64,000 nucleotides of DNA from Candidatus Poribacteria bacterium (GCA_964291315.2 OZ219753.1:2304001-2368000); one strand, 5' to 3'; numbered from the stretch's first letter, positions 50,440-55,185 are shown. The notes: a model not told the origin generated them from the letters alone. Translations and numbers: made by a program.

Positions 50440-53400
50440 ATGGATTCACGAACCAAACGCTTTATTCCCACTGTTATTGTCCTTGCACTTATCGGAGCGC
50501 TAGTTGCTATTTGGGTTAACCTGTACCCTGACTTCCTGTGGTTTCAGGTAGTGGACTATTGGAGCATTTACACTAAAATTCTCACGACGAAAATCGGGGT
50601 CGGTGCAGTTGTTGGGGGCTGTTATTTAGCGATTCTCCTAACCAATCTTGCCATCATCTACCGATTCACGCCAGCGCATCTCAGCCCCGCATTTATGGGA
50701 GGTGCAGACTTCACAGGCGGTGCAATAGACAATCCGGGCGCTACGCGAAATCTAATTTATGGCGGACTCGCCCTTCTTGCTGTGCTCTTTAGCACCTTGA
50801 TGGGATACGCAGCCAGTGACCGATGGGAGATCTACCTACGTTTTACCAATGCAGATGAACTCACTTTCCCCGCTGCTACATCTATTGTCGTAGACGGGAG
50901 TCTTAACTCCAATGAAGTGCCAGTGGCACAATCGGAGCTCCGAGGAAAAAATATAAGAGCGGGCGATCTTGTAAACGTCCACATTGATGGAGCAAGTCAA
51001 GAGGCACATGTTGAGGCGGTGATGGAGAATGCTATTCGATTGAGTACGCCTGTTCAAATAGAATCCGGACAAAAGGCGTTTCTCACCTCGCCTGCACGCG
51101 ATCCAATTTTCAAAAAGGATGTTTCCTACTACGTCTTCAAAATGCCGATGTGGCGATATATCTGTGGGACCCTTTTCGGCCTTTTCTTGTTGGTTACCAT
51201 TTTCTCAACCGTCATCTACTTTTTCCACGGATTAATCACCGGTGATACCAGTCAATTTCGATTCTGCCCGCCTTTCAATGTGAAGGCACATCTGTTCACG
51301 CTCGTCGGGATAACGCTCCTCTGCCGGGCATGGAACTACGAATTCGCTATGTACGACTTGTTGTACACCTCAAACAACCTCGTACGCGGCGGTGGCGGAT
51401 ACGCCGCTATACAAGCACGGCTCCCTATATTGTGGATTATGCTCTGTATTACGATTATCTGCGCACTAGTTTTTATTGTGAGTATCTTCCTCAAGCGTAA
51501 CACCTTCGCATTCGGTGCCTTCATCGTTTTTCTCATCGCTGGTTTCCTCGGACAAGCCTATCCGGTCGCTATACAAAGGTGGCAAGTTGAACCCAGAAAA
51601 CAGGTATTAGAGGCAGATTATATAGACTATAATATTAAAGCGACACTCCAAGCGTACGGTTTGGCTGACAACACCGTGACCGAAGAAGAGTACCCGCTGA
51701 CCGAACAGCTCAGCTATGAGGACATAAGGAGTCCAGAGAACGCTCCGGTCTTTAATAGCATCCGCCTCTGGGATTGGCGGCCTTTGCGCAGAACTTTCCG
51801 TCAACTCCAAGAATTAAGATCGCAGTACGACTTTAACGACGTTGACATCGATCGCTATGTCGTTGATGGCGAAATTCGACAGGTGATGCTTTCTGGACGC
51901 GAACTCAATATCAACGAACTCCCAGTTGAGATCAGGAATGATTGGTATAAGCAGACATATACATATACGCACGGATACGGTGCAGTCGTGAGTCCTGTCA
52001 ATGAAATAGATAACGGGAAGCCGAACATGTACATTCAAGGGTTACCGCCTATTGACTATAGCGAACAGTGGCAGCACCGGTTTAGCGAAACACCGGGGCC
52101 TCGTATCTACTACGGTGAACGGACAAACCGTTACATTATCGTGCACCCTAATCGCACCCCGGGGCTTGAGTTCGATTACCCACAAGAGGGACAGCAGTAT
52201 GCCGAATACGCCTATAGCGGGCAAGGCGGGGTTCAGTTAAACTCCTTCTGGCGGAAACTGGTGTACATGCTCAAATTTGACAATGAAATTAACTTCGTCT
52301 TGCCGGGTGAAATTTCGTCCACAAGCAAAATCCTCTACGATCGAAATATTAAAAAACGCGTACAGAAAATCGTTCCGTTCTTGCGATATGATGACGATCC
52401 TTACATCGTTATTCATAACGGGCGACTTGTCTGGATAATTGATGCCTATACCATTACGCATCGCTACCCGTACTCCGTTTCTATGGAAGAATTCGTCGAC
52501 GAAAGAAGACGACGGATCGCAAATACGCGGCGAAATAGTGAACCTTGGGGCAACTACATCCGAAATTCCGTTAAAGTAGTCGTTGATGCTTACGACGGAA
52601 AGGTCGATTTTTACGTTATGGAGCGAGAGCGGGACCCTATTGTAGAGTGTTACCGTAAGATCTTCCCGGGCCTTTTCAAACCCTTTGCAGAGATGCCGGA
52701 CGAACTCAAAACACATATCCGGTACCCGACCTCTATGTTCTTCATCCAAGCCCGCATCTATCAGGATTATCACATGAAGGATCCGATAACGTTTTATGCA
52801 GGCGAGGATAAGTGGGAGATCGGCAGGGAACTTTATGACAATACGGATGCACAGACACGGCAGGTTGCGACTCCACAACAGAGAAACCCGTTCGCGCCAC
52901 AACAAGTCCCTCGAAACTCCGGGGTTAATAGTCAACTCGTTAAGCCTTACTATGTTGTCATTAGGCTGCCCGGGGAAGAAAAAGCGGAATTCATGTTGAT
53001 GTTGCCTTTCACACCGCTCAATAAGCCCAATCTTACCGCATGGCTTGCCGCTCGGTGCGATCTACCGCAATACGGACAACTCCTAGTCTATCGTTTCCCG
53101 AAAGGTAAACAGGTAGCCGGCCCCATGCAAGTTGAGAACTTTATTAGTCAAGAACCCGAAATTTCGCAACAGATTAGTCTCTGGAATACACAGGGATCTC
53201 GTGTCTTACGGGGCAACTTATTGATCCTTCCGATGAATAACTCCCTACTTTACGTTGAACCTATCTATATTCAGTCCGAAGACGAAAAAACCGCTATCCC
53301 CGAATTGCGGCGAGTCGTCATCGGATATGGTAATGAGGTCGTCTGGGGCGAAAGTCTTGATGAAGCTCTCGTCAAGATGTTCGGACGCGGAACATCCGAG

Positions 53401-53607
53401 CAAACAACGACTACCGCGACAACAACGGTTGAAACCGCAACTGACCCCGGTACAAATCAAACGCCACTGAGAAGTCTCATTCAACAAGCAAGCCGCCATT
53501 TCAATCAAGCCCAAGAGGCACAACGCACTGGCGATTGGACAGGATATGGGCAGTCACTTCAACTTTTAGAGGAGACTTTGCGTCAACTTGAAAGAACTAC
53601 ACAATAA
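50440..53607 (+). CDS. UPF0182 family membrane protein
   Basis: DPIFKKDVSYYVF, IRLWD, DVDIDRY, YTHGYG, PRIYYGE, NYIRNSVK, GNLLILP, LYVEPIY, PELRRV. Confidence 0.95.
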   Translation: MDSRTKRFIPTVIVLALIGALVAIWVNLYPDFLWFQVVDYWSIYTKILTTKIGVGAVVGGCYLAILLTNLAIIYRFTPAHLSPAFMGGADFTGGAIDNPGATRNLIYGGLALLAVLFSTLMGYAASDRWEIYLRFTNADELTFPAATSIVVDGSLNSNEVPVAQSELRGKNIRAGDLVNVHIDGASQEAHVEAVMENAIRLSTPVQIESGQKAFLTSPARDPIFKKDVSYYVFKMPMWRYICGTLFGLFLLVTIFSTVIYFFHGLITGDTSQFRFCPPFNVKAHLFTLVGITLLCRAWNYEFAMYDLLYTSNNLVRGGGGYAAIQARLPILWIMLCITIICALVFIVSIFLKRNTFAFGAFIVFLIAGFLGQAYPVAIQRWQVEPRKQVLEADYIDYNIKATLQAYGLADNTVTEEEYPLTEQLSYEDIRSPENAPVFNSIRLWDWRPLRRTFRQLQELRSQYDFNDVDIDRYVVDGEIRQVMLSGRELNINELPVEIRNDWYKQTYTYTHGYGAVVSPVNEIDNGKPNMYIQGLPPIDYSEQWQHRFSETPGPRIYYGERTNRYIIVHPNRTPGLEFDYPQEGQQYAEYAYSGQGGVQLNSFWRKLVYMLKFDNEINFVLPGEISSTSKILYDRNIKKRVQKIVPFLRYDDDPYIVIHNGRLVWIIDAYTITHRYPYSVSMEEFVDERRRRIANTRRNSEPWGNYIRNSVKVVVDAYDGKVDFYVMERERDPIVECYRKIFPGLFKPFAEMPDELKTHIRYPTSMFFIQARIYQDYHMKDPITFYAGEDKWEIGRELYDNTDAQTRQVATPQQRNPFAPQQVPRNSGVNSQLVKPYYVVIRLPGEEKAEFMLMLPFTPLNKPNLTAWLAARCDLPQYGQLLVYRFPKGKQVAGPMQVENFISQEPEISQQISLWNTQGSRVLRGNLLILPMNNSLLYVEPIYIQSEDEKTAIPELRRVVIGYGNEVVWGESLDEALVKMFGRGTSEQTTTTATTTVETATDPGTNQTPLRSLIQQASRHFNQAQEAQRTGDWTGYGQSLQLLEETLRQLERTTQ

Positions 53608-53703
53608 GACAACTATTGACAAGCGATTAAAACGTTTGGCTTATACAAACCAGCTCTTAACCGATGACTCACACCTAATATGCCGCTAAAGGAGGTGAAA
53701 CAA

Positions 53704-53949
53704 ATGGCTCTTGATTGGAAACCACGGCACCGAGACATAATTATTGGAAATATCCCATGGTTAGCTAGAATTACCGATAAAGCCAATGCCAAACTGCAAG
53801 GCATTATCGGTGACTATATCTACCCGTGACCACAGGATAAGTTGTTCCTGGAGGAACACAAGATAAGTGCTGAGGCGTTCGTCGAAATGGTACGGAACAA
53901 TCCGTCAGACGATGAAATGATAGCCGCTATGAAGAAATTGGATCGTTAG
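53704..53949 (+). CDS. DUF5069-like protein, candidate selenoprotein (TGA at codon 42 read as Sec), 81 aa
   Basis: Perfect SD AAGGAGGTGA; MALDWKPRHRDIIIGNIPWLARITDKANAKLQGIIGDYIYP-[TGA]-PQDKLFLEEHKISAEAFVEMVRNNPSDDEMIAAMKKLDR*; family-like sequence on both sides of the TGA. Confidence 0.75.
53841..53859 (+). promoter_or_regulatory. Candidate bacterial SECIS hairpin
   Basis: G-(U bulge)-UGUUCC-UGGA-GGAACA-C; the loop starts 20 nt after the UGA and has G at its second position. Confidence 0.6.
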
Positions 53950-54117
53950 GGAAAGAGTTCGCAGCCATCAGCAGTCAGTAGATCGTTGTGGAGATAGCGA
54001 TCATTTTCTCCTGCTACCTGCTCTTTATTAAAAGTGTGGGGAGCCGTTGTGTCTCATTTTTTACCACAAACCGATTCTTCTGATTGCTGATAACTAATAA
54101 CACGGAGACCTATTTCT

Positions 54118-55185
54118 TTGGAACTGACAAAGTACCGTGATCAAATTAACGAGATTGACGACCAGATTTTACATCTTCTACAGAACCGAGCAGAAATTTC
54201 CAAACAGGTCGGTGCAGTAAAAGCAGAAACAGGTGTTGCTAGCGTTTACGTTCCACATCGACACAAGCAGGTCATTGAACGCTTGAAGGTGAAAAATCAA
54301 AACCTATTCCCGGAAGGTGCGTTGGAGGCGATCTGGAGAGAAATTTTATCTGCCTCTCGTTCTTTGCAGGAACCCGAACGGGTTGCTTTTCTCGGGCCCG
54401 TGGGTAGTTTTGGACACTTAGCAGCCCTATGTCATTTCGGTGCCTCGACAGAGCTTATTCCGGTCCGTCCACAGACAGACATCTTTACTGAAGTTGAGTC
54501 TGGCAGAACCGACTATGGTGTGGTGGCTATCCAGAATTCTCTGCATGGCACTGTTCGTGATGTTCTCGAATGTTTTCAACGTACACCTTTATCGATTTGT
54601 GCAGAGGCGTTCCAGCCGATAAGACAGCACCTCTTATCAAAGTCGCCGATCACGGAAATCCGACGTATCTACTCACACCCGCAACCTTTCGCGCAGTGTA
54701 AGACCTGGCTGCAGCGGTATCTCACTAACGCTGAGCAGGTCGAGGTCGTCAGCACGTCTGAGGCAGCAGAACGGGCTGCAGCAGAACCAGCCGCTGCTGC
54801 AATTGCAAGTGAGCTTGCAAGCGAAATTTATCAGATTCCGATCATCGCAAATTCCATTATGGATGAATCTGATAACACAACCCGTTTTTTTATCATCGGA
54901 AAACACCAACCCGACTCAAGCGGGTACGATCGAACTTCGCTCTTCTGTGCCATTCCTGACAAGGTTGGGGCACTACACCAGGCCCTCGGTATATTAGAGG
55001 AAACAGGGTTGAATCTCAGTTATCTGGAATCTTTGCCATCCCGAACCAAACCTTGGGAGTACATCTTCTTTGTTGAAATGGAGGGCCATATCGCCGACGA
55101 CCGCGTCGGCGGGGCTCTTAATCGACTCGAAGCATTGTGCCGCGAAGTTAAGGTTCTCGGATCTTACCCACGCGGTACTCAGTAA
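54118..55185 (+). CDS. pheA: Chorismate mutase / prephenate dehydratase
   Basis: RDQINEIDDQI CM domain, FLGP, SHPQPFAQC, NTTRF, ACT domain with ESLP. Confidence 0.95.
   Translation: MELTKYRDQINEIDDQILHLLQNRAEISKQVGAVKAETGVASVYVPHRHKQVIERLKVKNQNLFPEGALEAIWREILSASRSLQEPERVAFLGPVGSFGHLAALCHFGASTELIPVRPQTDIFTEVESGRTDYGVVAIQNSLHGTVRDVLECFQRTPLSICAEAFQPIRQHLLSKSPITEIRRIYSHPQPFAQCKTWLQRYLTNAEQVEVVSTSEAAERAAAEPAAAAIASELASEIYQIPIIANSIMDESDNTTRFFIIGKHQPDSSGYDRTSLFCAIPDKVGALHQALGILEETGLNLSYLESLPSRTKPWEYIFFVEMEGHIADDRVGGALNRLEALCREVKVLGSYPRGTQ

Follow-up and report, generated by a model that had tools for sequence, protein, structure and literature searches.

A short-form DUF5069 gene with an in-frame UGA codon: a probable selenoprotein gene of Candidatus Poribacteria

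The Locus and the Layout of the Gene

The DNA stretch analysed here (the window) covers 64,000 bp of a Candidatus Poribacteria metagenome-assembled genome (MAG) of 4.4 Mb in 4 contigs (GCA_964291315.2, OZ219753.1:2304001-2368000). Between a UPF0182 family gene and pheA, it contains a short reading frame interrupted by one TGA codon (positions in Table 1). Sequence comparison makes it very probable that the segment 53704-53949 is a single mis-annotated gene, encoding an 81-residue selenoprotein that corresponds to a short form of the DUF5069 family, with selenocysteine (Sec) at residue 42.

Translation of the segment gave 41 sense codons ending in GDYIYP, the TGA, and 39 further sense codons (PQDKLFLEE...IAAMKKLDR) closed by a TAG. 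Among 107 distinct sequences upstream of the UGA-form orthologues, 106 had a Shine-Dalgarno-like motif at the equivalent position. The ribosome binding site, the start codon, the two parts of the frame, the TGA, the TAG and the hairpin described below were all found, in the sequence and its translation, where a first-pass annotation of the window had put them. The product had been called DUF5069-like, and this identity was borne out by a Pfam PF16798 (DUF5069) match that crosses the UGA, from residue 7 to residue 78 (47.9 bits for a cut-off of 27, E 1.9e-12; 44.3 bits in the whole-genome search). Only profile positions 4-75 of 133 were covered, and the protein has 81 residues compared to approximately 145 for the family. 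As the match is limited to the N-terminal 75 of the 133 profile positions, the protein is a short form of DUF5069. Short forms of approximately 85-90 residues also exist among the relatives with cysteine (Cys).

Conservation of the UGA Codon and the Cysteine Homologues

The gene was present in 168 of the 176 Poribacteria species genomes (E <= 1e-12). The eight genomes in which it was not matched were two same-genus genomes (each 81% complete), all three genomes of family f5, and three genomes of families f10 and f11. Exactly one in-frame TGA was observed in 160 of the 168 gene-bearing genomes, with a protein identity down to 64%. These 160 genomes cover the order of the window (families f1-f4) in addition to families f6, f7 and f9. 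All eight genomes of family f8 were devoid of an in-frame stop and carried TGC or TGT at codon 42. At the level of the extracted loci (160 from Poribacteria, some genomes being represented twice), codon 42 was TGA in 152, TGC in seven and TGT in one.

For the sampling outside Poribacteria, 40 of 56 loci were read, the 16 others being further Poribacteria loci; one of the 40 (L318) had no motif, and 39 were usable. Codon 42 was TGA in 19 loci from Candidatus Latescibacterota, one locus from an unclassified MAG and two Poribacteria-like loci. It was TGC or TGT in 11 loci from Chloroflexota, four from Bacillota/Clostridia, one from Eremiobacterota and one from another unclassified MAG. Thus, TGA was found in 20 of 20 Latescibacterota-type loci, and a Cys codon in the 17 loci of other phyla. 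The Latescibacterota loci L267-L286 (match at approximately 2501-2773) showed the TGA at the same codon and an identical 14-nt sequence, GTTCCTGGAGGAAC, for a protein identity of approximately 50%. The isolate names suggest that several of the Latescibacterota MAGs and the Poribacteria were obtained in the same sponge studies.

More distant relatives were represented by 160 aligned stretches, taken from the best 150 representatives in a library of 1.8 billion proteins. Position 42 was aligned with Cys in 118 of them, with Ser in 14, with Trp in one, with another residue in 14 and with a gap in two; in the last 11, the protein stopped exactly at residue 41. A Cys is also aligned with residue 42 in the Protein Data Bank (PDB) structure 3omd. 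The first-pass proposal that the UGA falls on a conserved Cys was therefore supported at four levels: the f8 genomes, the loci of other phyla, 3omd and the distant stretches. At this position the homologues have Cys and not Trp.

A bare in-frame stop, taken with nothing more, would suggest a sequencing or assembly error, a private nonsense mutation or a pseudogene. The occurrence of the same TGA in 160 Poribacteria genomes belonging to several orders and in 20 Latescibacterota-type loci refutes this explanation, and both halves of the gene are under purifying selection; its probability is practically nil.

It could also be considered that the UGA terminates translation, so that a peptide of 41 residues is made and what follows is either a remnant in decay or a small open reading frame translated on its own. 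Public gene calls split the gene in this way, into proteins that end in YIYP and others that start with M-FLEE. In addition, 59 of 106 distinct coding sequences (the set used for all codon statistics, sequences with a one-codon insertion being left aside) have ATG as codon 47. In the other sequences, that of the window included, this codon is read as Leu, Lys, Val, Arg or Ser, and such variability means that the downstream half has no conserved start codon. Coding was conserved before and after the UGA, in a single frame, as seen from the Pfam span, the alignments and the per-codon statistics, and the downstream half remained in frame with the upstream half in approximately 170 loci from two phyla, so that the sequence after the TGA is kept as protein, as the first pass had supposed. 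The Pfam domain and the 3omd fold both run across the UGA, and the Cys-form homologues are continuous. Termination at codon 42 thus appears very unlikely.

The Hairpin Downstream of the UGA

A putative hairpin of the selenocysteine insertion sequence (SECIS) type was located inside the coding sequence. Its five-pair core, GUUCC/GGAAC, encloses the loop UGGA, and in this genome a sixth pair, U53843-A53858, extends the stem to UGUUCC (53843-53848) and GGAACA (53853-53858). The first base of the loop is the 20th nucleotide after the UGA. This represents a UGA-loop spacing of 19 nt, which becomes 22 nt in a lineage with one extra codon. The hairpin is built from codons 48-51, encoding Phe-Leu-Glu-Glu.

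The presence of the hairpin strictly followed that of the UGA. The core was found after the UGA in 173 of 173 readable TGA loci, 168 times exactly and five times with pair-preserving changes, and in none of the 25 Cys loci (108 distinct 48-nt segments for the TGA loci versus 25 for the Cys loci). Where the TGA forms have FLEE, the Cys forms have FLEK, FLER, WLQK, VLAEL or LLKKL, showing that the protein sequence is free to change at this place once the UGA is gone. The codon usage was equally striking. Across the 106 distinct coding sequences, codon 48 (Phe) was TTC in 106, codon 49 (Leu) was CTG in 106, codon 50 (Glu) was GAG in 106 and codon 51 (Glu) was GAA in 105. The same amino acids varied elsewhere in the gene, with 57 TTC and 49 TTT at codon 59 (Phe), 45 GAG and 43 GAA at codon 37 (Glu), and six codons in use at codon 31 (Leu). 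This freezing of codons 48-51 is RNA-level selection on the hairpin.

RNAalifold, run unaided on 101 distinct 69-nt segments, found only the 5-bp stem GUUCC/GGAAC with its UGGA loop; the 57 nt following the UGA showed no other conserved structure, a lower stem included. When the helix was counted over seven pairs, 91.2% of the cells were paired, as compared to 30-71% with the 3' partner slid by one to three columns. Three pairs displayed changes on both sides (11 cells), and none of 500 shuffles scored as high. One of these double changes affected the outermost core pair, and the rest occurred in the two outer pairs. The pair-preserving changes were AUG..CAU versus GUG..CAC and AAG..CUU, to which the lineage with one extra codon added GUG..CAC versus GUA..UAC. 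In Latescibacterota, the identical 14 nt were flanked by AAG..CUU. The stem-loop that had been picked out by eye in the first-pass annotation is thus the conserved element, according to its distribution among TGA and Cys loci, the RNAalifold consensus and the state of codons 48-51.

For a bacterial SECIS (bSECIS), Figure 2 of PMC13188914 gives a loop of 3-9 nt, an upper stem of 4-16 bp, a G in the first two loop positions, a UGA-loop distance of 16-37 nt and a minimum free energy (MFE) of <= -7.5 kcal/mol. The loop, stem and spacing observed here lie within these ranges, with a 4-nt loop having a G at positions 2 and 3, a stem of 5-7 bp and a spacing of 19 nt, or 22 nt in the lineage with one extra codon. 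A similar hairpin, GCUCC-AGG-GGAGC, was present in the SelD gene of the same genome, with 12 nt from its UGA to the stem. The arrangement resembles that of the bacterial genes with an intragenic SECIS (the prototype being E. coli fdhF, and the bSECIS model that of Zhang and Gladyshev, in the summary offered by PMC13188914): the in-frame UGA is located at the Cys of the homologues, a stem-loop with a small loop and G-G at loop positions 2-3 lies inside the coding sequence just 3' of the UGA, and selA, selB, selC and selD are present in the genome.

Another codon of the region showed a restricted usage. Ala56 (53869-53871), much less variable than the other codons for Ala, was GCT in 98 of the 106 distinct sequences. 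Many of the sequences, when folded singly, pair the (G)CUG at this position with CAG(C) after the UGA (53833-53835), approximately 30 nt apart, and this pairing could be a facultative lower stem. As a part of the element itself, this lower stem was rejected: it was not found by RNAalifold, and roughly half of the sequences use CAA for Gln44.

Selenocysteine Machinery and the Use of TGA in the Genome

The genome of the window possesses the whole selABCD set that the first-pass annotation presupposed, selA, selB, selD and the tRNA-Sec all scoring above their curated cut-offs. The tRNA gene, identified by ARAGORN as tRNA-SeC with the anticodon TCA, adjoins selB. The selD gene itself carries one in-frame TGA, in the context VKCAGUASK. 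Across the phylum, selA was detected in 164 of the 176 Poribacteria genomes. One in-frame TGA, at the place of the active-site residue, also occurs in each of six frames of the AhpC/TSA family and in a SelW-like (Rdx) frame, which indicates that the genome is rich in selenoproteins. The decoding system would be common to all of these genes and to the DUF5069 gene. The SelD, peroxiredoxin-like and SelW-like genes belong to catalogued families with a known chemistry, unlike the DUF5069 gene, and their hairpins differ in sequence, several being longer. In the literature, a passage of PMC13582414 places Poribacteria among the phyla with Sec-containing group 4 hydrogenases, and a passage of PMC5649159 notes an enrichment of selA and selB in bins of sponge symbionts. 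Among the peroxiredoxin frames, two are adjacent to each other and may be one tandem gene.

TGA is also used as an ordinary stop codon, ending three of the 26 long frames in the window. It is the true stop of the DUF5069 gene in 14 of 152 orthologues. In family f2, the orthologues L137-L143, L055, L108, L130 and L131 have a lysine-rich C-terminal tail, KPSKKRKSKSRKS, ending in TGA. One mRNA of this family would therefore have a UGA read as Sec and a UGA read as a stop.

These observations bear on the possibility that the UGA of codon 42 is read as Trp, Cys or Gly through a near-cognate or suppressor tRNA or a variant code. Such a reading would account for the Trp displayed at residue 42 by several European Nucleotide Archive (ENA) proteins (P0002-P0009, P0011, P0013, P0014, P0016 and P0024). 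All of these come from contigs of less than 1.3 kb, with lengths of 530-900 bases noted for records with Trp. On contigs so short, a TGA=Trp model may be chosen for gene calling, and TGA was presumably read as Trp by the gene caller. A reassigned or suppressed UGA agrees poorly with its use as an ordinary stop in the genome and as the true stop of some of the orthologues themselves, with homologues that have Cys and not Trp or Gly, with the completeness of the Sec system and with a SECIS-type hairpin that goes strictly with the UGA. Read-through by any amino acid other than Sec is consequently considered highly improbable.

We propose the following mechanism for the DUF5069 gene. The UGA at codon 42 would be decoded by Sec-tRNA(Sec), which SelB would deliver after binding to the small hairpin located within the coding part of the mRNA. 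The Sec would then sit in YP-U/C-PxD, the best-conserved motif of the family, and may act there as a redox-active nucleophile.

Strength of the Selenoprotein Reading

Several points weigh against reading this gene as a selenoprotein gene. The first concerns the hairpin. The folding of 53827-53890 gave z = -0.19 relative to shuffles, and the hairpin was outside the MFE structure. Taken alone, the hairpin has a pair probability of approximately 0.15 and an energy of -6.5 kcal/mol, above the bSECIS threshold of -7.5. Among relatives, the energy was -5.7 for the 5-bp variants and -7.7 to -9.9 for the 7-bp variants, which reach the threshold. As compared to other bacterial SECIS elements, the DUF5069 hairpin is thus at the small end, with an invariant core of 5 bp and no conserved lower stem found. 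Because the hairpin is unconvincing on a single sequence, the case is built on comparison. The covariation is itself limited: the five core pairs are nearly invariant and therefore bring little information by themselves, and two of them (UUC with GAA/GAG) pair under any synonymous codon. The second point concerns the sampling. The MAGs are related and many of them originate from the same sponge studies, so the counts overstate their independence. The third point concerns residue 42. The Ser present in 14 of the 160 distant stretches, according to the alignment, means that its identity is not indispensable across the whole DUF5069 family, and the redox role discussed below is drawn by analogy. 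Lastly, the insertion of Sec at codon 42 and the expression of the gene are both predictions; no RNA data set was listed among the public sequencing runs.

The small size of the hairpin leads to another explanation, in which the invariant 14-nt block would be kept for the binding of another factor or as a translational pause, Sec being inserted by way of another element. The energy below which a bSECIS is usually placed is missed here by the hairpin by itself, and the binding of SelB is a prediction, two features that this explanation would accommodate. It has to be set against the association of the hairpin with every UGA, without exception, and its absence from the Cys forms, against a spacing and a loop composition that are those expected for a bacterial SECIS, and against the RNAalifold result, in which the 57 nt that follow the UGA hold no further conserved structure to serve as the other element. 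We regard this alternative as having a very small probability, and the selenoprotein decoded with the help of the hairpin as the preferred reading.

Annotation Records and Novelty

The public records reflect the difficulty of calling such a gene. Truncated proteins ending in YIYP (P0018-P0021) were found, NCBI ones included, together with fragments starting with M-FLEE (P0022 and P0023). Standard gene callers do truncate the gene, as had been anticipated.

None of the NCBIfam models matched the read-through protein, at E values up to 1. Table 1 of a review of May 2026 (PMC13188914), called the most comprehensive inventory, contains 119 selenoprotein families and subfamilies. DUF5069 is missing from this full table, and "PF16798" appears nowhere in the paper. 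A full-text literature search for "DUF5069" returned no match. The nine new families in the available text of the deep-Sep paper (PMC12013277) do not include DUF5069, although its supplementary tables may name it otherwise. The first-pass statement that this is not known to be a characterised selenoprotein family thus agrees with both the review table and NCBIfam. The closest situation is that of the predicted single-Sec families without CxxU/UxxC in Table 1 of PMC13188914 (DUF523, DUF166 and the hypothetical proteins DG/DW/DF), for which the evidence is of the same type, namely a Sec/Cys pair, TGA orthologues and a predicted bSECIS; they are other protein families than PF16798. In the literature covered, DUF5069 is very probably an uncatalogued selenoprotein family, decoded by the known bacterial mechanism.

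The gene adds to the bacterial selenoproteome, as one more family among more than 110, a family with a solved but unexplained structure (3omd). The link between UGA and hairpin, together with the loss of the hairpin in the Cys forms, shows a SECIS constraining a protein, Phe-Leu-Glu-Glu being frozen only in the presence of the UGA; the freezing of four codons by a SECIS is seen here very cleanly. Pipelines that annotate the MAGs of sponge symbionts should recode the gene.

Protein Fold and Possible Function

The AlphaFold2 model, obtained with 86 aligned sequences, had a mean predicted local distance difference test score of 86.9 and a predicted template modelling (TM) score of 0.72. In this model, a short N-terminal hairpin would be followed by helices at residues 20-32, 43-51, 56-65 and 69-80. 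Residue 42 would be placed immediately ahead of the second helix (43-51). Foldseek matched the model to 3omd (E 4e-4, query-normalised TM-score of 0.86, root-mean-square deviation of 1.0 over 74 columns); every other PDB chain had an E value above 3. The 3omd entry, the solved member of DUF5069, described as an "unknown function protein from Leptospirillum rubarum", is like the Poribacteria protein in sequence and fold, YPCPxD being aligned with YP-U-PQD. The Poribacteria protein differs in being short and in having Sec in place of Cys. Across the family, P7, R22, D25, K26, D45 and D69 are nearly invariant, together with YPCPxD, its best-kept stretch, in agreement with the family motif given in the first pass. 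No other Cys was found in the translated protein, so that residue 42 stands alone.

As DUF5069 is a family without known function, membership explains nothing about the activity. According to section 7 of PMC13188914, Sec replaces, as a general rule, a catalytic redox Cys. Since catalytic redox sites are where Sec is nearly always located, the Sec/Cys pair marks out the single conserved Cys of DUF5069 as a probable active residue, and this constitutes a first functional handle on the family. By analogy, one may guess at a single-selenol redox centre, of the 1-Cys type, that would need an external thiol partner. This reading is suggested by the rule just mentioned, by the helix-cap position of residue 42 and by the missing second Cys.

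The fusion partners of the distant relatives did not point to a common function; they were an AI-2E transporter, a NuoF-like module with flavin mononucleotide and Fe-S, a methyltransferase, a cupin, DUF2249 and a dienelactone hydrolase. A search for related loci with a narrower alignment gave matches in Nitrospira only. In the cultured Nitrospira moscoviensis NSP M-1 (L262:3112-6081), a full-length Cys-form gene is situated between genes of the DUF3386 and haem-peroxidase families. These neighbours are suggestive, at most, of oxidative-stress biology. The genome of the window contains two other loci of the family, both free of an in-frame stop: a frame of 440 residues in which three full-length DUF5069 domains stand in tandem, and a single-domain copy.

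Evolutionary History

A tree was built from 63 proteins of the short form, position 42 being written as X. The loci L027-L136 were thinned to every sixth after the removal of duplicates and of X-containing proteins, and 22 of the 39 readable non-Poribacteria rows were included. The Latescibacterota Sec forms branched as the sister group of the whole set of Poribacteria forms, in a joint clade supported at 100/98. The f8 Cys forms and the Sec forms of Poribacteria made up separate groups (87/89 and 93/83); for the Poribacteria clade itself, support reached only 80/72. The simplest reading is that the UGA and the hairpin had one origin, since both phyla share the identical 14-nt hairpin, and that a Sec-to-Cys change took place later in f8; the root and the weak node allow other orders of events. 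A loss of the Sec machinery was considered as the cause of the Cys forms and was ruled out, selA being present in seven of the eight f8 genomes.

Gene Neighbourhood

The features discussed in the text are collected in Table 1. The genomic context was surveyed in 137 loci of more than 3 kb. In 134 of them, including the Cys-form f8 loci and other orders, the DUF5069 gene was immediately followed by pheA in the same orientation. It was preceded by UPF0182 in 124; in the remainder, the absence of UPF0182 may be due to short flanks. The linkage with pheA could correspond either to co-transcription or to a mere conservation of gene order.

Table 1. Coordinates of the gene, its signals, its neighbours and other frames of the same genome
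Feature	Position	Strand	Remarks
Selenoprotein gene, short-form DUF5069 (predicted)	53704-53949	+	ATG at 53704; 81 codons, then TAG at 53947-53949; Sec predicted at residue 42
Shine-Dalgarno sequence	53689-53698	+	AAGGAGGTGA; 5 nt ahead of the ATG; read from the sequence
UGA codon 42, probable selenocysteine codon	53827-53829	+	Aligned-codon comparison across loci
SECIS-type hairpin, putative	53843-53858	+	Core GUUCC 53844-53848 / GGAAC 53853-53857; loop UGGA 53849-53852
Terminator-like hairpin and T-run	53981-54002	+	32 nt past the TAG, between the gene and pheA; weak, consensus match only
UPF0182 family gene	50440-53607	+	Pfam PF03699, E 7e-243; upstream neighbour
pheA (chorismate mutase, prephenate dehydratase, ACT)	54118-55185	+	Pfam CM_2, PDT, ACT; downstream neighbour
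AhpC/TSA and SelW-like frames	G000:C4:2301999-2302817, C4:1108602-1108973, C4:2253622-2253996, C1:471388-471774, C1:367055-367390, C4:2229859-2230080		First frame ~1.2-2 kb before the window start
Frame with three tandem DUF5069 domains	G000:C1:171073-172323	-	440 residues
Single-domain DUF5069 copy	G000:C4:1741028-1741375	+	

A wider and rather unlikely proposal can be formulated from the fold, the context and the hairpin taken together. The DUF5069 proteins would represent an all-helical class of one-Cys/one-Sec redox proteins without the thioredoxin fold, with the catalytic residue capping the second helix. In the Poribacteria-Latescibacterota group, the protein would work with the adjacent pheA, for example in a redox- or selenium-dependent control of aromatic amino-acid synthesis, and the 14-nt hairpin would be a distinct minimal class of SECIS.

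Three terminator-like sites were counted in the 900-nt region, as compared to 1.0 expected from shuffles. The gene next after pheA is queG.

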